Source of the DNA: Gemmatimonadaceae bacterium
GTDB taxonomy: Bacteria > Gemmatimonadota > Gemmatimonadetes > Gemmatimonadales > Gemmatimonadaceae
Length of the DNA: 64,000 bases
Direction of reading: 5' to 3'
NCBI GenBank assembly: GCA_035273165.1
Contig: DATEPP010000139.1
Coordinates: forward strand, 158 to 64,157
Part shown: piece after piece, positions 3,542 through 58,250 of the stretch
Numbering within the stretch: the first letter of the stretch is position 1
Layout: each line of letters opens with the position of its first letter
Notes under the pieces: generated by a model
Databases searched by the model: none
Seen by the model: only the letters and a program-made list of their open reading frames with translations
What the model was told of the DNA's origin: nothing
Made by a program: the position numbers and the translations under genes

Positions 3542-4303
3542 GTGCTCGGCGCGTCGCTACTGCCGTCGGTACTGTTTCTCGCGCCGATGGCCGGAGCTCA
3601 GTCGTTAGGCACCGCCCCGGGCTACCTCGACTATCTCTCGCTGCTGGGCACTCCGATCGCCAGCCTGCCTCCGCTCGCGACCTACGCGATGTTCGGTGTC
3701 GCGCAACAATCGCCGCAGTTGGTCGCGCGCTACGGGTACGTTCCCGACGTCGATCGTCCTCTCGCTCCGGCGAGTGGCGGACACGAAGCACGCAGCCTCG
3801 ACAGCTTTGGGCTCACCGGCATTGTTCCCGCCGGTCTCGACGGCACGATCACACTGACCGCGGGCCTCTCCAATGACCGATGCCGTGGATGCTCGGGCAG
3901 CGCGTTCATGGCCGCGATCGGCGGCGACCATCGCCTGACCACGATTTCCATCGATGCCGCGACCGCGACGCGTTTGACCATCGGCGTCAACGGCGAGATT
4001 GGCGTCGGTCATCCGGTCACCGGGGTGACGTGGAGCGCCGATGTCGGTGTGCCGCTCGCGCTCGCCTTGGGACCGGCGACGGGGACCTCGATCATTCCAT
4101 TCGTCACCCCCGGTTTCGCGGGGTTCGTCAGTCGCGACCCGGCGGGAAGCGGTACCTATGCGGCGGCGCGTCTCCTCGTCGGGGCCGGCGTCGCGCTCTT
4201 CAACGCGAAGAGCGCGCTCGGCGCGAGCGCCGGATTCCAATACGTCTTCGTCGACCGGACCGAGCTCCAGTTCGGCATCGCCCTCTCCCTCGGCGGCCGC
4301 TGA
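3542..4303 (+). CDS. Secreted or outer-membrane hypothetical protein (Gly/Ala-rich beta-strand pattern)
   Basis: Signal-peptide-like N-terminus (LLPSVLFLAPMAGAQS). Alternating-hydrophobicity pattern ending QFGIALSLGGR. Confidence 0.5.
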   Translation: MLGASLLPSVLFLAPMAGAQSLGTAPGYLDYLSLLGTPIASLPPLATYAMFGVAQQSPQLVARYGYVPDVDRPLAPASGGHEARSLDSFGLTGIVPAGLDGTITLTAGLSNDRCRGCSGSAFMAAIGGDHRLTTISIDAATATRLTIGVNGEIGVGHPVTGVTWSADVGVPLALALGPATGTSIIPFVTPGFAGFVSRDPAGSGTYAAARLLVGAGVALFNAKSALGASAGFQYVFVDRTELQFGIALSLGGR

Positions 4304-4334
4304 CACGGGTTGATTAGCATCAACTGACGTTCCG

Positions 4335-7300
4335 CTAGTGGAAATCGTGGCGCTGGGCGTACTCCGCGCCGACCTCCGCCTTGAGGCCGCGAAACTCCTC
4401 GCCGCGAATGTTGACCACGCCCTGCTCCACCTGCAGCGTTCCACGCACGAGGAGCAAGGGTGTGGTCGAGATCAATAATGCCTGTCGCTCGAATCGCTTC
4501 GGTGTCACGACGACATTCACCGTCCCCGTTTCGTCCTCGAGTGTGAGAAAGACGAATCCCTTGGCCGTGCCTGGCCGCTGCCGGCAGATCACGAGGCCGG
4601 CGCTCGCGATTCGCTCACCGTCCTTTCCGTCCGTCACGAGCTGCCGTGCGGTCCGGACGCCGTTAGGCGCGAGCAGCGGCCGCAGATGCGACATCGGATG
4701 TCCATTGAGCGAGATGCCGGTCATGCGATAGTCTGCTTCGGTCAGCTCGCCCGGCGACATCGTTGGAAGTCCGGCGGTGCGCGCCGCCGTGCCGAGGTCG
4801 CGCCGGCGGCGGGGCGCCAACGGTCCCGCGTCGCCACGCAGCGCGTCGAGCACCTCCCATAACGCCGCGCGCCGCTTGCGGAGATCCGGCTCGTCGGGCA
4901 CGAAGCCATCGAAGGCTCCCGCTTCCGCGAGCTGGCGCAGCGTCCGTTGATCGAAGCGCGTCCGCCGCGCGAAATCCTCGATCGACCCGAACGGTCCCGC
5001 CGCGAGCGCGCCCTCGACGATCTCCTTCGCCTTCGGTCCGAGCCCGCGCACCGATCGCAGGCCGAGCCGGACGGCGGGTGCTCGCGAGCCCTCTGGTTCG
5101 CGCTCGAGCGTCGCATCCCACCGCGAGTGGCGCACGTCCACCGGTCGAACCTTCACGCCATGACGCTTCGCGTCTTCGATCAACGTGCCCGGCGCGTAGA
5201 AGCCCATCGGCTGTGCATTGAGGATCGCCGCCGTGAACTCGGGCGCGTAGTAATGTTTCAGAAACGCTGATGCATAGACGAGCAACGCGAACGACGCCGC
5301 GTGCGATTCCGGAAAGCCATAGTCGGCAAATGCGTTGATCTGATTATAGATCCGAAGCGCCGTTTCCTCGGCGATGCCATTGCTCTTCATTCCGTCGATG
5401 AGCTTTGCACAAATTGCCGCCATCCGCTCGCGGCTCCGCTTGTGCCCCATCGCGCGACGGAGCGTGTCGGCCTCGCCCGCTGAGAACCCGGCGCACGCGA
5501 TCGCCACCTGCATACCCTGCTCCTGGAAGAGCGGCACGCCTAACGTACGTGCCAGGATCGGCTCCAGCGACGGATGTGGATACTCGACCTTCTCTTCGCC
5601 CGCGCGCCGCCGCAGATAGGGATGCACCATGTCGCCCTGGATTGGCCCCGGACGAATGATCGCGACCTCCACGACCAGATCGTAGAAGCACCGCGGCTTG
5701 AGTCGCGGCAGCGTGTTCATCTGCGCGCGACTCTCCACCTGGAAGACGCCAATCGTGTCGGCCCGGCACAGATCCTCGTAGACCGATTGGTCGTCCATGT
5801 CCAGCTGCGCCAGATCCACCGTGATACCGCGTGTCTGCCGCACATACAGCAGGCAATCCTGGATCAACGTCAGCATCCCCAGACCGAGCAGATCGATCTT
5901 CACCAGTCCCACCGGATCGAGATCGTCCTTCTCCCACTGAATCACCGTCCGGTCGGGCATCGACGCTGGCTCGATCGGCACCACCGTCGACAGCGGCTCG
6001 GCCGTGAGCACGAAGCCGCCGACATGGATCGACCGGTGCCGCGGTACCTGATGCAGTCCATCCACGATCTCGGCGAGCGCTCGCACCCGCTTGTCCGCCG
6101 GATCCAACCCCGCGTGCACTAGCGGTGACTGGCGGTCTTCCGCCGATGTCGAGATGGCGGTCGTCGGATTGCGACGCTCGTTATGCGTTTCCTTCGCGTA
6201 CGGATCCATGTACTCGGGCCGCGTCGGTGATTGGTGGCTGGTGGCTGGTGCCTGGTGGAACCGCCGATTCTGTTGCACCGTGTCGTGACCCGTTTCACTT
6301 CCGTAGGGCTCGTACCCGGCGTTAGGCCGCGGCCGATCCGCCGTCGTGAGATGTTTTTTCCCCTTCGGCGCCAATTTCGATCTTTCGCCGTCTCGCGTCC
6401 CGCGTCCCGCGCCCCCCATCCCGCGTGCCGCCTCTTTCACTTCCCGCGACTCCAGCGTCGCCGACGTGCCCGGCATCATCTGCTGCCCGAACGCGCGCGC
6501 GATCACCTCTTCCGCTGACTCATCGCCCTCCTCTCCGGCTGCGCCTAACGAGCCGCCGCGCAGCGCTTCAGCCGTCGCGCGCGCCGAGAACCGGTCACTC
6601 AGCATCGACAGTCGGTCCGCCTGCTCGACGGAAAATCCCAGCACGCGCGCGGCGTCCCGTACCGCCGAGCGGCCCCGGTAGGTGATCTGCTCGCAGACCA
6701 TCGCCGCGTGCTCGCGCCCGTACTTCTCGTAGACGTACTGGATCACCCGCTCGCGCTCACGATGCGCGAAATCGATGTCGATGTCCGGCGCCTCGCGCCG
6801 CTCCTCACTCAGGAACCGCTCGAAGAGCAGTCCGAGACGAATGGGATCCACCGCCGTGATGCCAAGGCAATAGCAGACCGCGGAGTTCGCCGCCGATCCA
6901 CGACCCTGACAGAGAATCCCCTCGCGGCGCGCGAAGCGCACGATGTCCCACACGATGAGGAAGTATCCCGCCAGCCCGAGCCGGCGAATCATTCCCAGCT
7001 CGTGTTCGACCTGCCGGCGATGCGCTTCCGTCGGAAAGACATCCTCGCCTCCGTCGCGCTGCTCCGCTCCCCAGCGTTCCTGTGCCCCCTGGATCACCAG
7101 CCGCTCGAGATACTCGTCGGCGGTCACCTTCGGCGGCAGCGGAAAGGCCGGCAGCGCTGGCTCCAGCTGTTCCATTCGAAAGGCACAGCGTTCGGCGATC
7201 GCCCGCGTCGCGATGATTCCCTCCGGTGCGTGCTGCCAGCGCCGTCGCATCTGCGCCGCGCTCTTGAGATACCACTCACCGTTAGGCCGGAGCCGCGTCC

Positions 7301-8054
7301 CCATTGTATCGAGCGTTTTATCGTGCCGCAGGCACGACAAAACGTCGTGCACGATGCGATCGCGTGCCCGCGCGTAATGCACGTCGTTCGTCACGACCCA
7401 CGGGAGATCGAGCGCGCGCGCGACGTCGATCAGGCCGCGCACCGTCTCGCGCTCTTCCGCAAGTCCGTGATCCCAGCATTCGATGGCCACGCGACCATCG
7501 AATACGTCTTTTATGATCGCCGCCGCTTCACACGCGCCGTCGAGATCTTCGTTCGCCACGAGCGACGGCACCCAGCCGCGGGGGCACCCCGTGAGCGCGA
7601 ACAATCCGCGCGCGTGCCGCGCCACGAGGTCGAGCGACACCGACGGCTCTCCCCGCGGATTGTCCATGCGCGCCCGGGTGATGAGCGTGGAGAGATTTCC
7701 GTATCCCTCGCGCGTTTCGGCGAGGAGAAGCAGATGAGTGGCTGGTGATTGGTGGCTGGTGGCTGGTGGTTGGTCACCAGTCACCAGCCACCGACCACCA
7801 GTCACCGTCAGCTCCGCCCCAATGATCCCTTCGATCCCCACCTCGCGCGTCGCCTGCGCGAACCGCACCGCCCCTCCGAGCTCGTCGTGATCCGTGAGCG
7901 CGAGCGCGGGCAGTCCGAGATCGGCCGCCCGCGCCGCCAGGACTTCCGGCAACGCCGCGCCGTCGAGAAGAGAAAAGCAGGAATGACAGTGCAGCTCGAC
8001 GTAGTCGTTGGCTCGGGCCGATCGCGTCAATCGAACCACCCCTGCACCCACCAT
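4335..8054 (-). CDS. dnaE2: Error-prone DNA polymerase III alpha subunit DnaE2 (ImuC) carrying in-frame repeat insertions
   Basis: PHP motif YVELHCHSCFSLLDGA, polymerase core (GVPLFQEQGMQ, HVGGFVL), C-terminal OB fold. Lies downstream of imuA-imuB. Start ATG 8054 was chosen just after the imuB stop; the longest ORF reaches 8141. Confidence 0.9.
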   Translation of the reverse strand: MVGAGVVRLTRSARANDYVELHCHSCFSLLDGAALPEVLAARAADLGLPALALTDHDELGGAVRFAQATREVGIEGIIGAELTVTGGRWLVTGDQPPATSHQSPATHLLLLAETREGYGNLSTLITRARMDNPRGEPSVSLDLVARHARGLFALTGCPRGWVPSLVANEDLDGACEAAAIIKDVFDGRVAIECWDHGLAEERETVRGLIDVARALDLPWVVTNDVHYARARDRIVHDVLSCLRHDKTLDTMGTRLRPNGEWYLKSAAQMRRRWQHAPEGIIATRAIAERCAFRMEQLEPALPAFPLPPKVTADEYLERLVIQGAQERWGAEQRDGGEDVFPTEAHRRQVEHELGMIRRLGLAGYFLIVWDIVRFARREGILCQGRGSAANSAVCYCLGITAVDPIRLGLLFERFLSEERREAPDIDIDFAHRERERVIQYVYEKYGREHAAMVCEQITYRGRSAVRDAARVLGFSVEQADRLSMLSDRFSARATAEALRGGSLGAAGEEGDESAEEVIARAFGQQMMPGTSATLESREVKEAARGMGGAGRGTRDGERSKLAPKGKKHLTTADRPRPNAGYEPYGSETGHDTVQQNRRFHQAPATSHQSPTRPEYMDPYAKETHNERRNPTTAISTSAEDRQSPLVHAGLDPADKRVRALAEIVDGLHQVPRHRSIHVGGFVLTAEPLSTVVPIEPASMPDRTVIQWEKDDLDPVGLVKIDLLGLGMLTLIQDCLLYVRQTRGITVDLAQLDMDDQSVYEDLCRADTIGVFQVESRAQMNTLPRLKPRCFYDLVVEVAIIRPGPIQGDMVHPYLRRRAGEEKVEYPHPSLEPILARTLGVPLFQEQGMQVAIACAGFSAGEADTLRRAMGHKRSRERMAAICAKLIDGMKSNGIAEETALRIYNQINAFADYGFPESHAASFALLVYASAFLKHYYAPEFTAAILNAQPMGFYAPGTLIEDAKRHGVKVRPVDVRHSRWDATLEREPEGSRAPAVRLGLRSVRGLGPKAKEIVEGALAAGPFGSIEDFARRTRFDQRTLRQLAEAGAFDGFVPDEPDLRKRRAALWEVLDALRGDAGPLAPRRRRDLGTAARTAGLPTMSPGELTEADYRMTGISLNGHPMSHLRPLLAPNGVRTARQLVTDGKDGERIASAGLVICRQRPGTAKGFVFLTLEDETGTVNVVVTPKRFERQALLISTTPLLLVRGTLQVEQGVVNIRGEEFRGLKAEVGAEYAQRHDFH
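6226..6258. repeat. Heptamer array GGTGATT GGTGGCT GGTGGCT GGTGCCT GGTGG inside dnaE2
   Basis: Direct reading. Encodes HQAPATSHQSP on the coding (minus) strand. Confidence 0.85.
6394..6432. repeat. (GCGTCCC)n-type array inside dnaE2, giving a G-quadruplex motif on the coding strand
   Basis: cgcgtcccgcgtcccgcgccccccatcccgcgtgccgcc. The complement carries at least four G3+ tracts. Confidence 0.8.
7738..7806. repeat. Imperfect palindrome of (GGTGGCT)n / (AGCCACC)n heptamers inside dnaE2
   Basis: Left arm gtggctggtgattggtggctggtggctggtggttgg, centre ggtcacc (7772-7778), right arm ccagtcaccagccaccgaccaccagtcacc. In-frame. Confidence 0.85.
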
Positions 8055-9847
8055 TGATCGTCCATCCGATCGAGGTAGAGCACGAAGTCCCCGAACGCAC
8101 TCTCGCAGCGCCAGTAATCGCGCCGATAACCGTCGTCCCACCAGTCGCCGGAGAGCCGCTCCGGCCCGACGGCGCGCTCGATCGTTAGGCGCCGGCCCCG
8201 CCAGGTCACGGTGCGTGGCACGCCGTCGTCGCAGAGGACGAACACCGACTCCGGTGACTCGAGCAGCCGGATGGCGGGGTCGGCGCCCGCGGGCGCCGTC
8301 CCCAGGGCCGTGTTGCTGGAGGAGGACGCCAGCGACGGAGCATCCTCAGCCGCGTCCGCCCACGTCCCCATCCGCTCCGGGACATGCGCGTCGCGCGCCA
8401 CCGGCCTAACGACGACGTTCGGGCCCAGCTCGGCGCGCAGCCGCGCGAGCGCGGCATCGACAGCCGCTCCATCGCGCCACGTCGCGTCCAGCAGCTCGCC
8501 TTGCTCTCCGGAGAGCGGCGCCGCGGCGACGACTGCCACCCCGACTCCGATCGCCGGCGCCGTCAACGACCAGTGGTCGAGCAGAGCGCGGCAGCGCTCG
8601 AACAGGGGAGCGGAGCGGGCCACGGGGCGGGGGAGTCGAATTTCGCGCGTCACTGTGTGCGCCCGCGCGAGCGCGTTCGTCGGCAGCGCTCCGCGGCGGT
8701 CGTCGAGACTGATCGTGATCGACAGCGCCGCCACCGCCTGGCCGCGGCTGGCCAGCTGTGTCGTTAGGCGATCAAGCGCCGCGCGCACGAGAAAGAGAAT
8801 CGGCTCCATCGTCGTCGCCGCCATCGGCAGCTCCGCCTCGACCGCCGGGAAGTCGACGACACGCGCCAGCACCGGCCGCCTGGAATCCTCTCCCCGGGCC
8901 AGACGCCAGGCGCCGAGGCCTTCCTGTCCCCAGCGCCGCTCTACGTCCTCTGCTGACAGCGCGGCGAACGAACCCACGTTGCGTAGCCCGAGCGCCTGCA
9001 GCGCCAGCCGCAGCTCGTCGTCCATCGGCACGAGCGCCAGCGGTGCCGGCGCGAGATACGCCGCGTCGTGGCCATGCGGCACGATGCACACGAGCGACCG
9101 ATCGTCTCCCTGCTGAAAGGACGTTCCCGCCCACGTCGCCGCGCGAGCCGCGACGCACGAATCCGCGATCGCCACGCGCGATCGTGGATGCCAGCGTGCC
9201 GCGATACGCCGAAGCGTGTACGCCAGCTCCCGCTCGCCGCTCCGGCCGCCGAATCCCGACGCGCCGACCCACCACATTCCGGGCACCCCAGCGACCGGCG
9301 TGATCTGAGGGCTCGCCTCGAGCAGGAGCGCGGTCATCTCCGTCGTCGCTGCCGCGACCGCGACGTCATCCCACGGGTACTCGTGCAGCTCGGCGCAGAT
9401 CGCACGCGCCTCGGCGATCGTCATGCCTGCGCGAATGCCGGCTCGCCCCGCCGCTGCCGACACGGCACGCAGCCGTCGTCGCCCCGCGATCGCCTTCGGT
9501 CCGCCGAGCTCCGTCAGGACGATCGGCGCGTCATCCCAATGTCCCGGTAGCGATGGCGCGTTCGTCCAGGGGCCCGAGGTGGGACGGAGTGTGGAGATCG
9601 CCGGCGCCGAATTCGGGCTCGGCGCAGCGGCGCTTCCGGGCGAGAACGCGTCCAGCGCCCCCTGCTTCGTTAGGCGCGCCGGCTCCATGGCCCGGAACGG
9701 GAGCATGAGTTGCACGTCGCTCGCTCCCAGGTCGCCCCGTCTGGCGGCGCGCCACACCGCGCCGATCGGGAACCTCGGGATGCGTACACAGGCGACGCGC
9801 CACTCCAATTGCACAGCTGACCTCCACGGTTCGATGAATGCCTCCAC
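8027..9847 (-). CDS. imuB: ImuB, Y-family-polymerase-like mutasome subunit
   Basis: 606 aa. N-terminal ACVRIPRFPIGAVW is typical of the ImuB/DinB-fold start. Position between imuA and dnaE2. GTG start at 9847. Confidence 0.85.
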   Translation of the reverse strand: MEAFIEPWRSAVQLEWRVACVRIPRFPIGAVWRAARRGDLGASDVQLMLPFRAMEPARLTKQGALDAFSPGSAAAPSPNSAPAISTLRPTSGPWTNAPSLPGHWDDAPIVLTELGGPKAIAGRRRLRAVSAAAGRAGIRAGMTIAEARAICAELHEYPWDDVAVAAATTEMTALLLEASPQITPVAGVPGMWWVGASGFGGRSGERELAYTLRRIAARWHPRSRVAIADSCVAARAATWAGTSFQQGDDRSLVCIVPHGHDAAYLAPAPLALVPMDDELRLALQALGLRNVGSFAALSAEDVERRWGQEGLGAWRLARGEDSRRPVLARVVDFPAVEAELPMAATTMEPILFLVRAALDRLTTQLASRGQAVAALSITISLDDRRGALPTNALARAHTVTREIRLPRPVARSAPLFERCRALLDHWSLTAPAIGVGVAVVAAAPLSGEQGELLDATWRDGAAVDAALARLRAELGPNVVVRPVARDAHVPERMGTWADAAEDAPSLASSSSNTALGTAPAGADPAIRLLESPESVFVLCDDGVPRTVTWRGRRLTIERAVGPERLSGDWWDDGYRRDYWRCESAFGDFVLYLDRMDDQWWVQGWFD

Positions 9848-10517
9848 CCCCTTTCTCCACGACGATGGTCATGCGTCTGGTAGGTGGAGGGTGGTCTCGG
9901 GGCGCAGAGTGCGGGACGCGTGCTGCGGGACGCGGGACGAGGGACGCGGGGAGTCTCGAGTCACGAGGAGTCAGCGCATCCCGCGTCCCGCGTCCCGCGC
10001 CCCGCATTACGCGCAGTCGCACCGCGCCGCCGAGGAGGGAGGTGTGCCCTTCCTCCCCGGCGATGACGAGGGCGGCTCCCGATTCACGCGCGAGCCTCGT
10101 TAGGCGCACCGCCACGGCGCGCGACAACATCGGCCCCGAATCGATCACCACGAGCGCGAACGCACCGCACCGCAACAACACGTCGGCACACCACGCCGCG
10201 CGCGAAGGGTCGCGCGGCCGGATCATCCATAATCCTTCGCTGCCGAGATGCGCCCAGTCGCGCGGCGCGAGCGTACGTGTCGCGTCGATGTACGCCACCC
10301 ACCCCGCTGCGTCCAGCGTGCGTGCGACGATCTGACGCAGCAGCGTCGCTTTGCCACTCCCGCGCGCGCCGACAACCTCCGTCAGTCGCCCACGTGGCAA
10401 ACCTCCACCCACCAGCCGCGCATCTAGTGCTTCCACCCCTGTCGGCAGGGCGCTTCCCTCGACACTGGGTGCGGAGAGAGGGTGGGGGAGGAGGTCGACG
10501 AGAGACTGTGGAAGCAT
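9531..10517 (-). CDS. imuA: ImuA (RecA/SulA-like mutasome subunit) with in-frame repeat insertion and a long C-terminal overlap of imuB
   Basis: Walker-A-like GARGSGKATLL and RecA-fold pattern. ATG 10517 was preferred over TTG 10595. The frame only stops at 9531, 316 nt inside imuB. Confidence 0.7.
   Translation of the reverse strand: MLPQSLVDLLPHPLSAPSVEGSALPTGVEALDARLVGGGLPRGRLTEVVGARGSGKATLLRQIVARTLDAAGWVAYIDATRTLAPRDWAHLGSEGLWMIRPRDPSRAAWCADVLLRCGAFALVVIDSGPMLSRAVAVRLTRLARESGAALVIAGEEGHTSLLGGAVRLRVMRGAGRGTRDALTPRDSRLPASLVPRPAARVPHSAPRDHPPPTRRMTIVVEKGGGGIHRTVEVSCAIGVARRLCTHPEVPDRRGVARRQTGRPGSERRATHAPVPGHGAGAPNEAGGAGRVLARKRRCAEPEFGAGDLHTPSHLGPLDERAIATGTLG
9911..10005. repeat. Inverted (GGGACGC)n / (GCGTCCC)n heptamer arrays inside imuA, with G4 motifs on both strands
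   Basis: 9927-9951 reads GGGacgcGGGacgaGGGacgcGGGG. 9978-10005 reads atcccgcgtcccgcgtcccgcgccccgc. In-frame in imuA. Confidence 0.85.
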
Positions 10518-10589
10518 CGGAGTTTGGTCGGGAATCACTCCCGCGACCGCCGAGACTGCCGCGACGCGAAGGGGCGAATAAGCTATCCC

Positions 10590-10604
10590 GAACAAAAACC
10601 GAAA
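10590..10604. promoter_or_regulatory. Candidate LexA (SOS) box, GAAC-N7-GAAA
   Basis: gaacaaaaaccgaaa lies in the imuA/yggL divergent region and resembles the alphaproteobacterial GTTC-N7-GTTC direct-repeat box. The LexA motif of this lineage is unknown to me. Confidence 0.2.
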
Positions 10605-10697
10605 GCAAGAAGGAGGCCTTCCCCCGAGAGCTTGACGGTGATTCCGGCTCGCGCCACGCTACACAAGCCTGCAATACCGCACCGGCAAGGAGGAAGG

Positions 10698-11021
10698 ATG
10701 GATCATCTCACCCCCAGGACCACGCTCGGCTTCTCCATCCGCTTTCAGCTGGCGGCCGGTCTCGGTGAAGACGGCGCGCTCGAGCTCTGGGATGATTTCC
10801 TTGCCGGACCGCTCGGCGGCCGCGGACTGACCTCCCACGCCGTGGATGAGGAGACGAGCGGCCTCGCGCGACTTCTCTATCGTCCGAATGCGAACGCCAC
10901 CGAAGACGATCGACGAGCCGTCCGCGAATGGGCCCGCCGTCGCGGCGAAATCGCCGACTACGACATCGGTCCTCTGACGAGCCTCGGATCACCGCCGCCT
11001 AACGTGAACATCACTTCCTGA
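10698..11021 (+). CDS. yggL: YggL-family (DUF469) 50S ribosome-binding protein
   Basis: ATG 10698 is preceded by aaggaggaagg. LGFSIRFQL...ELWDDFLAGPL...RRAVREWARRRGEI matches the E. coli YggL pattern. Confidence 0.65.
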   Translation: MDHLTPRTTLGFSIRFQLAAGLGEDGALELWDDFLAGPLGGRGLTSHAVDEETSGLARLLYRPNANATEDDRRAVREWARRRGEIADYDIGPLTSLGSPPPNVNITS

Positions 11022-11057
11022 CCTAGAGTCGCTCCTTCTCCGTCGCTGCGTTTGTTC

Positions 11058-12179
11058 TTAGAGGAGCGCGAGCTGCTCTGCTGATCGAGGCGGAGTCGCT
11101 CGACGCGGCTCGGCACCGCTGTCCTCCTCGCCGCCGTCACCGATGTGCCCGAACGGAACTCCGTAGCGGGCGCAGATCCGCTTGAAGTACGCCCGCAGCC
11201 CTTCGCGATAGCGCTCACCCACGGCGTAGCTTCGCGCATACGTCGCGCGGTAGCGTGACGCGAGCTCCGGAAACTCCTGCTCGATGAAGGGGAGATACCG
11301 CTGCCGCGCCGCCGACTGCAGCCGAAGCGCGCACGCATTCACGTACGTCGCGCCACGCTCCGCCACGGTCCGGACCAGCTGATCGAGCTGCTCCGGCCCA
11401 TCCGTGATTCCCGGCAACACTGGCATCACGTTGATCCCGACGTCGATGCCATGCTCCCGCAACCGCGCCAGTGCCCGCACTCGTGCCTCCGGCGTCGGCG
11501 CGCGTGGCTCGAGTCGCCGCGCCAGATTCCGGTCGAGTGTGATCAACGACAGATGGATGGTGATCTCCGAGCTGCGCGCAATGCGACGCAGAAGATCGAC
11601 GTCGCGCGTGACGAGAGGACTCTTCGTGATGATCACGATCGAGAGGCCCGCGTGCTCGGCCAGCACCTCGAGCACGCTCCGCGTGACACGGAAGCGACGC
11701 TCCGCCGGCTGATACGGATCTGTCGCCGTCCCGATGACGATGCTCTCGTCGCCGAGCAGGGCGAGATGCCGGTCGGACCCATGGCGCAGCGCGCGCCGGA
11801 GCACCTCCGCCGCGTTCTCCTTCACGAAGATCCGCCGCTCGAACGCCAGCCACGGTGGCATGGAGTCCATGTCACGTCGCAATCCGTCGTGTTCCGGGTT
11901 CGCGGTCGCGGCGCGCTCGAGAACGTATCGATGTGCATAACGAGCGTAGCAGTATGCACACCCGAAGGCGCAGCCAACGTATGGGTTGATGGACCAGAAG
12001 CCCATCCCCGTCACCTCGGGCCCGTTCAACACACCGCGCGCGACCGAGCCGTAGTAGTTGATATCTTTCTGCTCCCCGATCACCGGCAGCACGCGCACGC
12101 CGAGCGCGGCGTCGGCGAAGAGCGCGCCCTGTTTCGCGCGCCGGAGGGCGGCGGTTTCCGGGGACAATGCGTTTCTCAT
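11058..12179 (-). CDS. Radical SAM protein (SplB/COG1533-like)
   Basis: CxxxCxxC cluster motif YVGCAFGCAYCYARY. Roughly 370 aa from ATG 12179. Confidence 0.8.
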   Translation of the reverse strand: MRNALSPETAALRRAKQGALFADAALGVRVLPVIGEQKDINYYGSVARGVLNGPEVTGMGFWSINPYVGCAFGCAYCYARYAHRYVLERAATANPEHDGLRRDMDSMPPWLAFERRIFVKENAAEVLRRALRHGSDRHLALLGDESIVIGTATDPYQPAERRFRVTRSVLEVLAEHAGLSIVIITKSPLVTRDVDLLRRIARSSEITIHLSLITLDRNLARRLEPRAPTPEARVRALARLREHGIDVGINVMPVLPGITDGPEQLDQLVRTVAERGATYVNACALRLQSAARQRYLPFIEQEFPELASRYRATYARSYAVGERYREGLRAYFKRICARYGVPFGHIGDGGEEDSGAEPRRATPPRSAEQLALL

Positions 12180-12180
12180 A

Positions 12181-13731
12181 GTGAACAGACCCGATCTACC
12201 GAAGATACACCGAAGACGCAAGTACCTCGCCGCGATCGTTGCGGGCGTGGTTGCCGCCATCGGCGTCTGGATGCTTTCGGCACCGCCCGGGCCCGGCCTC
12301 GACCCCGACGCCGCATCGTATCTCGGTGCCGCCGAGTCGGTTGCTCAGGGTCATGGTTATCGGATCCCGATCTCCGACTGGCACTCCGCCGACACTACAT
12401 CGGCTCTCGCGCACTTTCCGCCGGGCTATCCCACCGTCCTCGCCGCCGCGATAGCCGCTGGCGCGACCCCGGCGCACGCCGCGCGTCTCGTCAGCGCCGT
12501 TGCGGCGTTCGTGACGATCGCCGTCGCCACCGCGCTGGTCACGAGCGTCGCTGGCCTCCTCGCCGGCGTCCTGCTCGCCGCCGCGCTCCTCGTTATGCAC
12601 GCGATGGTGATCGTTCACCTGTCCGTGCTCAGCGAGCCGCTCTTCCTCGCCTGCTTCGTCTGCGCCGTCGCCGCGATGGAGCGATACCGGCAGGCGCCTA
12701 ACGAGGCGGCACGTCTCAGCGCGGCAGCGCTCGCCGGCGCAGCCGCCGCGGCCGCCGTCCTCGTACGCTACGCGGGCATCGCGGCGGTCGCCGCTGTCGT
12801 GCTCTGGGTGGCCGCGCCGCCCGCGCCGATCCGCATCCGCGCACGACGTGCGCTCGTCGCCGCTCTTCCGGCGGTCATCTTCTTCGGCGCGTGGGTCGCG
12901 CGATCGTACTTCATGAGCGGTCCCCGCTCCATTCGAGCGCTCGGGCCGTACGGTGGACTCGGCGAGACGCTCGCGACGGGATTCTCGACGTTGGTCGCCT
13001 GGCTCGTTCCTCTGACCTCGGACGATGCGCTGCCTGGCCGGAGCTGGATTGCACTGTGCCTTCTTGCCGGAATGGTGTTTCTCGTCGTCCGCGGCGCGTT
13101 CGCTGCGCGCCGCACGCCGGCCGCTGGGGTGCTTGCCGCGTTGTCGACCCTCGCCGTCTGCTACGTTGCCCTCCTCGTTGCTTCACGCATCCTCGCGGAT
13201 CCTGGCATCCCGTTCGACGAGCGAATTCTCGTACCGCTCTTTGTCCTCGTCGCCATCGGTGTCGCTGTCACGCTCGCAACATGGTGGCGCACTGCCGGTC
13301 GAGTGTCGCGCGCGGCCGTCGGGACTCTCCTCGTCGCCTGGTTCGGCGCGTCGTTCCGCGCATCAGAGGACGATGTGGAATGGATGCTCGAGAACGGGTC
13401 CGATTTCGCGCAGGCGCAGTGGACGGCGTCGCCGGTCCTCGCCTGGACGCGCGCGAACGCCGCGCGGCGTCCACTCTACTCGAACTGGCCGGCGGCGATC
13501 GTGTTCCATCTGCACCGTCCCGCGCACGAGGTGCCTAACGACTCGACCGTCAAGCTGCTGCGCGAGTTCGCCGACACGGTGCGGGTACGGAAGGGCATCG
13601 TGGTCGCGTTCGACCAACCGAGCCCGGACCAGATCGGCGTTACAGCGCTCGCCCGCGCGCCCGGGCTCCACGCCGCCGCGCGGCTCGCGGATGGAACTGT
13701 CTTCGTCCCCGAGCTGCTGCCGGTTCGTTAG
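12181..13731 (+). CDS. Polytopic membrane glycosyltransferase-like protein (ArnT/PMT_2-like)
   Basis: More than 10 predicted TM helices. N-terminal GYRIPISDWHSADTTSALAHFPPGYP loop is typical of GT-C enzymes. GTG 12181 is an uncertain start. Confidence 0.55.
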   Translation: MNRPDLPKIHRRRKYLAAIVAGVVAAIGVWMLSAPPGPGLDPDAASYLGAAESVAQGHGYRIPISDWHSADTTSALAHFPPGYPTVLAAAIAAGATPAHAARLVSAVAAFVTIAVATALVTSVAGLLAGVLLAAALLVMHAMVIVHLSVLSEPLFLACFVCAVAAMERYRQAPNEAARLSAAALAGAAAAAAVLVRYAGIAAVAAVVLWVAAPPAPIRIRARRALVAALPAVIFFGAWVARSYFMSGPRSIRALGPYGGLGETLATGFSTLVAWLVPLTSDDALPGRSWIALCLLAGMVFLVVRGAFAARRTPAAGVLAALSTLAVCYVALLVASRILADPGIPFDERILVPLFVLVAIGVAVTLATWWRTAGRVSRAAVGTLLVAWFGASFRASEDDVEWMLENGSDFAQAQWTASPVLAWTRANAARRPLYSNWPAAIVFHLHRPAHEVPNDSTVKLLREFADTVRVRKGIVVAFDQPSPDQIGVTALARAPGLHAAARLADGTVFVPELLPVR

Positions 13732-27572: not shown

Positions 27573-27692
27573 GCTGGTGGCTGGTGGCTGGTGGCTGGTG
27601 GCTGGTGACTGGTGGTGAGTGACGGGTGGCGAGTGGCGAGTGAATTCGGAACGAAGCGTTTTCTTACCTAGCACCTAGCACCTAGCACCTGG
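27573..27692. repeat. Composite heptamer-repeat element: (GCTGGTG)x5-7, (GTGGCGA)x2, (CACCTAG)x3-4
   Basis: Direct reading gives 5 perfect GCTGGTG units at 27573-27607 plus degenerate units, gtggcgagtggcga at 27627-27640, and tacctag/cacctag/cacctag/cacctgg at 27665-27692. Lies between convergent genes. Confidence 0.85.
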
Positions 27693-42849: not shown

Positions 42850-42873
42850 GGGCGAGGGACGCGGGAAACGGGG
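42850..42873 (+). repeat. G-quadruplex-type motif related to the (GGGACGC)n repeats
   Basis: GGGcgaGGGacgcGGGaaacGGGG, read directly, lies between convergent genes. Confidence 0.6.
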
Positions 42874-57557: not shown

Positions 57558-58250
57558 TTAGTGAGACGAGCTGCTCGATCCGCCCGAGCCGCTGGAACCG
57601 CGCGAGCCACTCGAACCACCGCTCGACCCACCGGAGCCCGACGAGCCGGAGGAGCCGCTCGAGCCACCCATACCACCGGACGATCCACTCGATCCGCTCG
57701 AGCCACCCATCCCGCCGCTGGATCCACTCGAGCCCTTCTGCCCACTCTGCCCGCTCTGCCCGCTCTGCCCACTCTGCCCACTCTGGCCGCTCTGGCCGCT
57801 CTGACCACTCTGGCCGGAGCTCGAGCCGGATTTCGATGAGCCGGAGGAACCGGACGAGCCGGACGAGCCGCTGGCGCCGAAGCCGGAGGAGCCGCTTCCG
57901 CTCGACGAGCCGCTGCCTGAGGAGCCATAGCTGCCCGACGAGCCGCTGCCACTGCGACCACTCGTCTGACTGCTGCCGAGCTCCGGATCCGTCATGTCAC
58001 CGTCGCCCTGACGGCCCCGGGTCGCCGAGCTGCCGATGCCCTCGTCACCCTGATTGCCGCGATCCGTGCGGCTCTGCGAGCTGCTGCTGCTGCTGCCCGA
58101 CTGCTGCCCGAAGCCGCCACTCGAACCGCTCGAGCCTGCATTGCGTCCCGAGGTGCCGCTTCCGCTGCTGCCGGACATCGAGTCACTATCAGAACTGCCT
58201 GACGAGCCACTCGAGCCACTCTTGTTGAGATCGTCCTTGCGGTCAGCCAT
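57558..58250 (-). CDS. Ser/Gly-rich intrinsically disordered protein
   Basis: ATG 58250 lies 9 nt downstream of GGAGG. The 230 aa are almost entirely S/G with an (SGQ)n block. Coding status rests on the RBS and ORF length only. Confidence 0.5.
   Translation of the reverse strand: MADRKDDLNKSGSSGSSGSSDSDSMSGSSGSGTSGRNAGSSGSSGGFGQQSGSSSSSSQSRTDRGNQGDEGIGSSATRGRQGDGDMTDPELGSSQTSGRSGSGSSGSYGSSGSGSSSGSGSSGFGASGSSGSSGSSGSSKSGSSSGQSGQSGQSGQSGQSGQSGQSGQSGQKGSSGSSGGMGGSSGSSGSSGGMGGSSGSSGSSGSGGSSGGSSGSRGSSGSGGSSSSSH
57738..57815. repeat. 9-bp tandem repeat (CTGSCCRCT)x8.7 encoding (SGQ)n
   Basis: Direct reading: ctgcccact ctgcccgct ctgcccgct ctgcccact ctgcccact ctggccgct ctggccgct ctgaccact ctggcc. 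Confidence 0.9.

Follow-up and report, generated by a model that had tools for sequence, protein, structure and literature searches.

An in-frame hairpin of inverted seven-base repeats in imuA of a Gemmatimonadaceae bacterium, probably tolerated and rearranging by inversions that keep its length

How can a repeat with a unit of seven bases, in which the gain or loss of a single unit shifts the reading frame, persist inside a protein-coding gene? The question is raised by the imuA gene in a 64-kb stretch of DNA from a soil Gemmatimonadaceae bacterium (contig DATEPP010000139.1; hereafter the window), in which two inverted arrays of a GGGACGC-like heptamer lie in frame near the 3' end of the gene. 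An earlier reading, made from the sequence only, had proposed that slipped-strand changes in unit number could switch the imuA-imuB-dnaE2 mutasome ON and OFF. Here, a different account is preferred, at a probability of roughly 0.58, in which the element is a tolerated, fast-evolving repeat in a permissive loop of ImuA, with no demonstrated function of its own, that rearranges by length-preserving inversion. All positions are window coordinates, and the genes of the cassette (imuA, imuB and dnaE2) all lie on the minus strand. The genome was seen over these 64 kb for the window organism and over up to 6 kb on either side of imuA for each related locus. All relatives are short-read metagenome assemblies, and the homologues and 80 genome loci used below all come from Gemmatimonadaceae metagenome-assembled genomes (MAGs). 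The best relatives of the window share 88-96% nucleotide (nt) identity with it in the region flanking the element, and sister lineages stand in here for same-species data.

The 111-base hairpin of 7-base repeats, in frame in imuA, was confirmed as real. The whole element (9897-10007, minus strand) is the variable 111-nt segment of imuA between codon V196 and the conserved DHPPP codons and consists, in gene orientation, of a G-rich heptamer arm, a spacer and a C-rich heptamer arm. Tandem Repeats Finder (TRF) reported both arms as period-7 arrays: the 5' arm in the mRNA, (GGGRCGC) x ~4.4, at 9975-10005 (minus strand; 91% matches), and the 3' arm, C-rich on the gene strand and read as (GCGGGAC) x 5.7 on the plus strand, at 9911-9950 (minus strand; 75% matches). 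On the plus strand, positions 9927-9951 read GGGACGCGGGACGAGGGACGCGGGG, exactly where the sequence-only reading had placed the first array; the near-complement tcccgcgtcccgcgtcccgcgccccgc lies at 9979-10005, one base off the 9978-10005 given there, and the spacer that separates it from the first array is 27 nt long, not 26. A repeat finder recovered inverted repeats of 34 nt at 88% complementarity and of 45 nt at 76%. The 13-mer GGGACGCGGGACG, allowing up to one mismatch, occurs eight times in the window against 0.8 expected, a count unreached by any shuffle, and all its matches fall within 9927-10003 or within dnaE2 at 6389-6415. The loop core GACTCCTCGTGACTCGAGACTCC (9950-9972, minus strand; 23 nt), made up of three degenerate GACTCNN units, has a single match in the 64-kb window at up to three mismatches, against 0 expected. 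This core holds three GACTC (GANTC) motifs.

Hairpin potential was assessed by folding against shuffles, as RNA (mRNA-sense strand) and as DNA (plus strand). Fold energies of -79 kcal/mol for RNA (z -6.0) and -48.6 for DNA (z -5.65) were unmatched by any shuffle. The inverted (GGGACGC)n arrays and their capacity to form a hairpin, as originally described, are borne out by TRF, the inverted-repeat search and folding alike. The same holds for the G-quadruplex (G4) potential claimed for both strands, as a regular-expression search for canonical motifs (four tracts, G3+N1-7) found one on each strand, at 9927-9951 (plus) and 9980-10003 (minus). Across the window six such motifs were found where 1.4 were expected, and three of the six fall in heptamer arrays. 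According to the fold computations, the predicted hairpin competes with G4 formation.

The gene that carries the element is an open reading frame (ORF) at 9531-10595 (minus strand; 354 codons as listed), with a likely ATG start at 10517. It matches Pfam RecA (3.9e-16) and, as its top NCBIfam hit, ImuA_translesion (5.1e-17; 62 bits, which is below the 150-bit curated cut-off). The next ORF, at 8027-9847 (minus strand), matches Pfam IMS and IMS_C, and a third, at 4335-8141 (minus strand), matches the error-prone DNA polymerase family PRK05672 of NCBIfam with 1268 bits. The identities of imuA, imuB and dnaE2 rest on these matches together with gene order, as a RecA-like ATPase gene directly upstream of imuB and dnaE2 is the arrangement expected of ImuA. 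Upstream of imuA (10482-12260 in the window), a divergent yggL-like gene is followed by a radical-SAM gene, an order conserved at loci L081, L082, L165 and L166; this shared neighbourhood speaks for a chromosomal location of the cassette and for its vertical inheritance within the clade.

In ImuA, a RecA-like N-domain is followed by the variable loop, a pair of beta-strands and a tail that is disordered yet conserved and that overlaps imuB. Translation agrees with the earlier statement that the element is in frame near the C-terminus, its encoded peptide being flanked as RLRVM ... RRMTIVVEKGGGG. An AlphaFold2 model built on 32 homologues gave a confident RecA-like core with a strand at residues 192-198 (AVRLRVM), a coil at 199-238 with a per-residue confidence score (pLDDT) of about 50, strands at 239-248 (RMTIVVEKGG) and 252-262, and a low-confidence tail. 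As the model puts the coil between the strands at 192-198 and 239-248, the element would encode the turn of a beta-hairpin, and its site is predicted to be a surface loop that is structurally permissive and joins the last beta-strands of the RecA-like core.

Variation at this site was compared in 162 imuA loci in which both anchors were present (80 genome loci, 80 metagenome loci, one further contig and the window). Loop length ranged from 9 to 261 nt. Different lineages carry different units at the same place in imuA (GGGACGC, GGGCAGA/GGGTGGA, CCCCACT, ACTGCGA, GCGCTCG and CAGACCT), mostly arranged as hairpins; one-armed 8-mers are found in some lineages, and arrays are missing from the shortest linkers (RRRQR). 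The linker changes far more quickly than the sequence around it: of 34 pairs of contigs at least 99% nt-identical in the N-domain, 12 have different linkers, with the two arms co-varying. The comparison with sister MAGs recommended at the outset therefore does reveal an unstable site, but not frame switching by unit number. Where near-identical contigs differ in length, they do so by multiples of 3, not of 7. A frequent difference among them, of 21 nt, had the look of three-unit slippage, a reading rejected after alignment placed the indels in the array flanks and showed equal unit numbers. The nearest relative of the window imuA (L081; ENA ERZ1761436, 1290-1519; 95.7% nt identity in the flank) has a chimeric linker, in which about ten GGGAYGC units without a complementary partner precede a GGGCAGA-type hairpin. 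Its loop contains an in-frame TAG with an ATG two codons on, and its ImuA is split into two called ORFs.

In spite of this turnover, the N-domain and the C-terminal tail are in the same frame in 161 of the 162 loci. The sole frameshifted contig (L082) is shifted by +1, and its sister L086 is 100% identical to it over 459 nt of the N-domain; the linkers of the two differ by wholesale rearrangement with a net change of 1 nt, not by one 7-nt unit. In the window, the imuB frame has a TGA at 9871-9869, which halts translation at once, and the third frame runs for 67 codons. Judged from these frames, either frameshift would be null, with loss of the last two core beta-strands and the tail, and a switch would be mechanically possible, if almost never seen. 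Two further candidates were tried and dropped: the Met of RRMTIVVEK as the start of a separate tail ORF, which would make frameshifts harmless, is unconserved in more distant homologues, and a -7 shift that fuses ImuA to ImuB runs into the TGA at 9871-9869.

These data bear directly on the proposed ON/OFF switch, i.e., a contingency locus in which slipped-strand gain or loss of one heptamer would put imuA out of frame or back into it, and the mutasome would be lost and restored accordingly. Such a locus would have an intra-ORF repeat with a unit not divisible by three, and the 7-nt units in imuA are of this kind. The null outcome predicted for a frameshift in either direction, the +1 contig, the contig with an in-frame TAG and the family-wide enrichment of arrays in the cassette (see below) can be added on the same side. 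Classic contingency loci show many OFF alleles among strains. Here, alleles that are ON or OFF by unit number are not common, with 161 of 162 loci in frame and the one exception a net +1. A long, near-perfect tract, of the sort that slips at a high rate, is likewise missing from imuA, as the arrays are short (4-6 units; 4.4 and 5.7 copies in the window) and imperfect (75-91% matches). The inverted-pair architecture and the flips described next are unneeded for a slippage switch, near-identical contigs differ by multiples of 3 and not of 7, and variation within the GGGACGC type is length-preserving. Consequently, the slipped-strand switch is left unsupported, and we regard it as highly improbable.

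How the element changes without changing length is best seen in the nine contigs that carry the GGGACGC type, seven of which have a V196-to-DHPPP segment of exactly 111 nt. The window element aligns to that of L087 only as its reverse complement, with 93 of 109 columns identical and the loop identical at 30 of 30, and an irregular unit of one arm is mirrored into the other arm. A second reverse-complement pair is formed by L001 and L083 (91/106), both of which contain the same loop variants. These end states suggest that the whole element has been inverted in place at least twice. The loop core is offset by 35, 35, 42 and 49 nt in one orientation and by 20, 27 and 41 nt in the other, and is read in all three phases in relatives. 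Since these offsets shift in 7-nt steps, the crossover points appear to be variable. As in an invertible switch, the segment lies between inverted repeats and is present in both orientations among relatives; no dedicated recombinase was found among the neighbouring genes examined (yggL, the radical-SAM gene, imuB and dnaE2).

A mechanism can be proposed for these observations. The element would be a quasi-palindrome of two inverted 7-nt simple sequence repeat (SSR) arrays, one of a class of heptamer arrays spread across Gemmatimonadaceae genomes. It would be inverted when its two arms recombine, or when the template switches from one arm to the other, at crossover points that fall in different repeat units: exchange of unit i with unit j of the inverted arm would flip the intervening DNA, keep the total length and move the loop to 7(i+j-1). 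Each inversion would thereby flip the spacer, shift it by a multiple of 7 nt, alter its reading frame and retain the complementarity of the arms. Staggered inversion could in this way account, as a single process, for the two orientations, for a constant length with loop shifts of 7 nt and for arms that stay complementary. As it keeps length and frame, it would also explain how an ORF can harbour an unstable 7-nt repeat. On this proposal, the element persists in that the loop accepts any peptide and the main mode of rearrangement maintains length, and thus frame, with rarer length changes being removed by selection for an in-frame, functional ImuA C-terminal tail. Direct results are the anatomy of the element, the permissiveness of its loop, conservation of the frame, the occurrence of both orientations, a constant length, loop shifts in steps of 7 nt and the enrichment of arrays in the cassette; inversion as the mechanism and the neutrality of the element are what we infer from them.

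Several points weigh against this account. No flip has been caught in the act, the nearest relative being only 95.7% identical at the nucleotide level in the flank. Steps of 7 nt at constant length could also result if one arm slips and the other later slips back by as much, and such footprints would fit a contingency locus; however, compensated slips, while capable of producing the same offsets, need a frameshifted intermediate and leave the flips unexplained. The loop core is 83-100% identical where the flanking N-domain is 85-93% identical (L087, L164, L165, L166, L001, L083 and L163), and it is conserved even though it is translated four different ways. This hints at nucleotide-level constraint or horizontal homogenisation, neither of which is predicted by a purely neutral model. 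The threefold, period-7-specific enrichment of arrays in the cassette, described below, is unexplained by tolerance alone. Lastly, all relatives are metagenome assemblies, in which repeats may be mis-assembled.

Taken to its extreme, this last point would make the element an artefact of assembly or sequencing at the repeat. Repeats and fold-backs are error-prone in short-read metagenome assemblies, and both L081 and L082 look odd. Nevertheless, more than 100 independent assemblies from different projects have arrays at the same site, nearly all in frame, and 22 of the 34 independent contig pairs at ≥99% identity have identical linkers, which leaves an artefact barely conceivable.

The presence of both orientations at one site, together with a loop core better conserved than its flanks, could alternatively point to a miniature mobile element, similar to a miniature inverted-repeat transposable element (MITE) or a Rickettsia palindromic element (RPE), that inserted either way round in an imuA hot spot and elsewhere. 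The same units do recur at several sites of one genome, and a 22-nt stretch is identical between the imuA and dnaE2 arrays. Against this, multiple copies with a full-length consensus, as expected of a MITE or RPE, were not found: the spacer has one match in 64 kb, and the other array sites have different spacers or none. No conserved termini beyond the repeat itself can be seen, inspection of 9897 and 10007 by eye revealed no target-site duplication, and no transposase was found in the neighbourhood genes examined. The constant 111 nt and the offsets in 7-nt steps also suit inversion in place better than repeated excision and insertion. Short-linker relatives are too distant from the window to define an empty site. 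Overall, the odds on a mobile element appear long.

The imuA element belongs to a wider class of repeats. Period 7 is the commonest tandem period in the 80 related loci, with 123 arrays of at least three copies compared with 19 for period 9 and 16 for period 12. In a set of 214 arrays the modal copy number is 4, and an inverted partner of the same unit lies within 150 nt in 41%, whereas a direct partner was found in only two. Units are common to 39% of distant site pairs within a locus, as opposed to 10% of random pairs between loci. A G3 or C3 run is present in only 49% of the 214 arrays, and sister lineages have units such as ACTGCGA or CAGACCT at the imuA site. Since units vary by lineage and only about half contain such a run, the conserved properties are period 7 and self-complementarity, not G-tracts or G4 potential.

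Arrays of this class are concentrated in the cassette. After dereplication at 95% and merging of neighbouring arrays, 100 period-7 sites were counted in 428 kb of cassette and 33 in 421 kb of upstream flank, a 3.0-fold enrichment (binomial p 4e-9; paired sign test 20 vs 4, p 8e-4). No difference between cassette and upstream flank was observed for periods 6, 8, 9 and 12. The clustering of repeat insertions in the cassette noted by the sequence-only reading is thus a family-wide feature, although its count of three falls short of the four sites present in the window (6232-6258, 6389-6431, 7738-7810 and 9911-10005), three of them detected by TRF in dnaE2. Hot spots, in coordinates of the window proteins, are residues 200-250 of ImuA, 450-525 of ImuB together with the imuB/dnaE2 junction, and 25-50, 100-150, 350-375 and 500-650 of DnaE2. 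The ImuB and junction hot spot is the strongest outside ImuA (up to 1.5 arrays per kb in a 500-nt bin), and the window has no array there. The simplest reading of the enrichment is tolerance in disordered loops of rarely expressed SOS-type genes.

A functional nucleic-acid structure offers another interpretation, in which an mRNA stem, or a DNA cruciform or G4, tunes expression of the cassette and selection keeps the hairpins. The structure could act as a target of RNase III or another nuclease, or could block ribosomes or polymerase shortly before the overlapping imuB start, which the predicted stem of ~25-30 bp precedes by ~50-160 nt. The restriction of the threefold enrichment to period 7, the co-variation of arms between near-identical strains, and a loop core conserved at the nucleotide level regardless of frame and orientation would all fit. 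The hairpin is not universal, however. Among linkers of 45 nt or more, only 37% had a z-score below -3, compared with 0.7% of coding control segments of matched length from the N-domain; linkers are shorter than 45 nt in 19 of 161 loci, and some lineages have one-armed, purine-rich arrays without a fold. A terminator and promoter scan showed no U-tract after the stem, i.e., no intrinsic terminator, and an Rfam scan of 4000-11500 (E ≤1) returned no family, only sub-threshold matches to eukaryotic miRNA precursors that reflect generic hairpins. In addition, template switching between the arms accounts for their co-variation without selection. A regulatory structure is therefore considered unlikely.

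More doubtful still is a broader idea, that heptamer-array hairpins are kept or preferentially generated in the imuA-imuB-dnaE2 operon for what they do there. In one version they would be a structure-based brake or sensor, acting as a target for a double-strand-specific RNase or as an obstacle to replication or transcription through which fork stress is coupled to mutasome output; in another, they would be traces left by the mutasome as it acts in cis on the heavily transcribed operon that encodes it. If either were true, the flipping ImuA loop would be a built-in, frame-safe hypervariable module, not junk, and were the enrichment to reflect function or cis-acting mutagenesis, non-B DNA would be linked to how induced mutation is controlled. 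Should the enrichment reflect no more than tolerance, in genes that are rarely expressed and have floppy loops, the cassette is a tidy example of a hiding place for selfish or mutational repeats. In either case, a family-wide and specific concentration of structure-prone repeats in an SOS mutagenesis operon has been uncovered. Annotators of this clade should be warned that the low-complexity Arg/Gly/Pro inserts of its ImuA, ImuB and DnaE2 proteins derive from repeats.

A tolerated repeat that inverts in place would have its nearest described kind, as far as sequence features allow a comparison, in the heptameric repeats of Xanthomonas and Nostoc, and would not appear to be a contingency locus, a MITE, a repetitive extragenic palindromic (REP) element or a recombinase-driven switch. 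Rehm et al. (2015, PLoS One) described heptameric G-rich SSRs in Xanthomonas (GGGAATC) and Nostoc (GGGGAYT) that prefer four units, are dispersed over the genome and form G4 in vitro, with 70-75 convergent inverted pairs in Xanthomonas; non-coding DNA is enriched in these repeats, and ORFs are depleted of them (PMC4692102). The arrays described here likewise consist of head-to-tail 7-nt units with one G3 tract, have four as their modal unit number, show dispersal of a unit over several sites and frequently form convergent inverted pairs capable of forming stem-loops; the single or paired type is also kept between relatives while length varies. They differ in location, being in frame within three SOS-mutagenesis genes and enriched there, and in comprising several unrelated units, only about half with G-tracts, in a different phylum. 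Whole-element flips and strain-level turnover are documented here and set them further apart. A literature search found no paper joining Gemmatimonadetes and heptanucleotide repeats, nor any that describes repeats in imuA. Bacterial genomes contain an excess of heptameric repeats, noticed long ago and still unexplained, which has been described as mostly intergenic. The imuA case indicates that they can live inside essential parts of an ORF, and it suggests a simple reason why a 7-nt repeat need not break the frame, namely that inverted arms rearrange by length-preserving inversion.

Other known systems share fewer features with the element. Haemophilus and Neisseria ORFs contain contingency loci with tetra- to heptanucleotide repeats, and SSR-based phase-variable loci have been described in H. 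influenzae ORFs (PMC2651432). The imuA arrays resemble these as intra-ORF tandem repeats in which a one-unit change shifts the frame, but differ in that alleles are nearly always in frame, the arrays are short, imperfect inverted pairs and variation preserves length. RPEs, reportedly found in frame in protein genes by Ogata et al. in 2000, are 100-150 nt long, have a consensus conserved along their whole length and spread as copies. Common to both is an in-frame palindromic repeat at a surface-exposed, permissive position that encodes a peptide without evident function, whereas only the 7-nt unit is common between sites here and the spacer is unique in the window. Hairpin-associated "minute inversions" are said to have been described in chloroplast non-coding DNA by Kelchner and Wendel in 1996, and quasipalindromes are subject to template-switch mutagenesis of the type studied by Lovett. 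With these the element shares a spacer found both ways round among close relatives, recurrence, complementary arms and the lack of a nearby recombinase gene, but it lies in a translated ORF and has tandem-repeat arms. As the arms are tandem repeats and crossovers would be staggered, the loop here also shifts in 7-nt steps. REP elements are extragenic, have a conserved sequence of 20-40 nt genome-wide and depend on a REP-associated tyrosine transposase (RAYT). Like REP elements, BIMEs and REPINs, the arrays are short, dispersed palindromic repeats able to form mRNA hairpins; unlike REP elements and REPINs, the imuA element is intragenic and has no consensus beyond the 7-nt unit, and no RAYT was present among the neighbouring genes examined.

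The tail whose frame is conserved overlaps imuB. There is no imuA stop near the imuB start, and imuA runs ~316 nt into imuB in another frame (9531-9847, minus strand), so that the first ~316 nt of imuB are also read in the imuA frame. The end of imuA (GTLG*) coincides exactly with the resumption of the conserved ImuB core (HWDDAPIV). Among 24 relatives, the segment encoding KRRCAEPEF varies on imuA third positions (0.25, against 0.02 and 0.04 at the others), which argues that the ImuA tail is under purifying selection in the imuA frame; in the segments encoding ImuB ACVRIPRFPIGAV and in the region past 330 nt, variation is on imuB third positions. Together, these patterns suggest that the long overlap is genuinely dual-coding, with the conserved C-terminal motif of ImuA housed in a low-complexity insertion of ImuB. 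In Myxococcus xanthus, the disordered C-terminus of ImuA regulates its ATPase (PMC11002988).

The remaining arrays of the window lie mainly in dnaE2, with four of the five array clusters in the window falling within cassette ORFs. At 7738-7810 (minus strand), (GGCTGGT)n and its complement form a zero-spacer hairpin (-62.8 kcal/mol, z -7.85), in frame in the PHP domain of DnaE2 at residues ~110-134, within the 100-150 array hot spot of its relatives. A solo (CGTCCCG) x 6.1 array at 6389-6431 (minus strand; residues ~570-584), whose minus strand carries a G4 motif (6399-6422), shares the 22-nt identical stretch with the imuA arm and lies in a DnaE2 insertion that also holds a (TGGTGGC) x 3.9 array at 6232-6258 (minus strand). 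This insertion of ~150 residues (~515-664; 6180-6480 in the window) separates two stretches matched by Pfam DNA_pol3_alpha, and in addition to the two non-complementary heptamer arrays it contains an unusually A+T-rich patch, gatgttttttcccc. The GGGACGC unit is found at two sites in the window and GGCTGGT at three. Of the related GGGACGC units previously noted, those in dnaE2 are accordingly real, at 6389-6431, while 42850-42873, which is indeed intergenic (between convergent ORFs) and has a G4 motif, contains only about two GGGACGC-like units and is weakly related to the other array sites. The only cluster outside the cassette, in the remaining 58 kb, lies at 27573-27690 (no strand assigned). 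It comprises (GCTGGTG) x 6, (GTGGCGA) x 4 and (ACCTAGC) x 3.6 and is at least partly non-coding, as the ACCTAGC unit has a stop in all frames on both strands. Dense tandem repeats of periods 9, 18, 27, 33, 39 and 57 (e.g., TCTGCCCAC x 8.4) occupy 57567-57950 and 58080-58221; this block, which has no relation to the heptamer class, is probably a gene for a repetitive protein.

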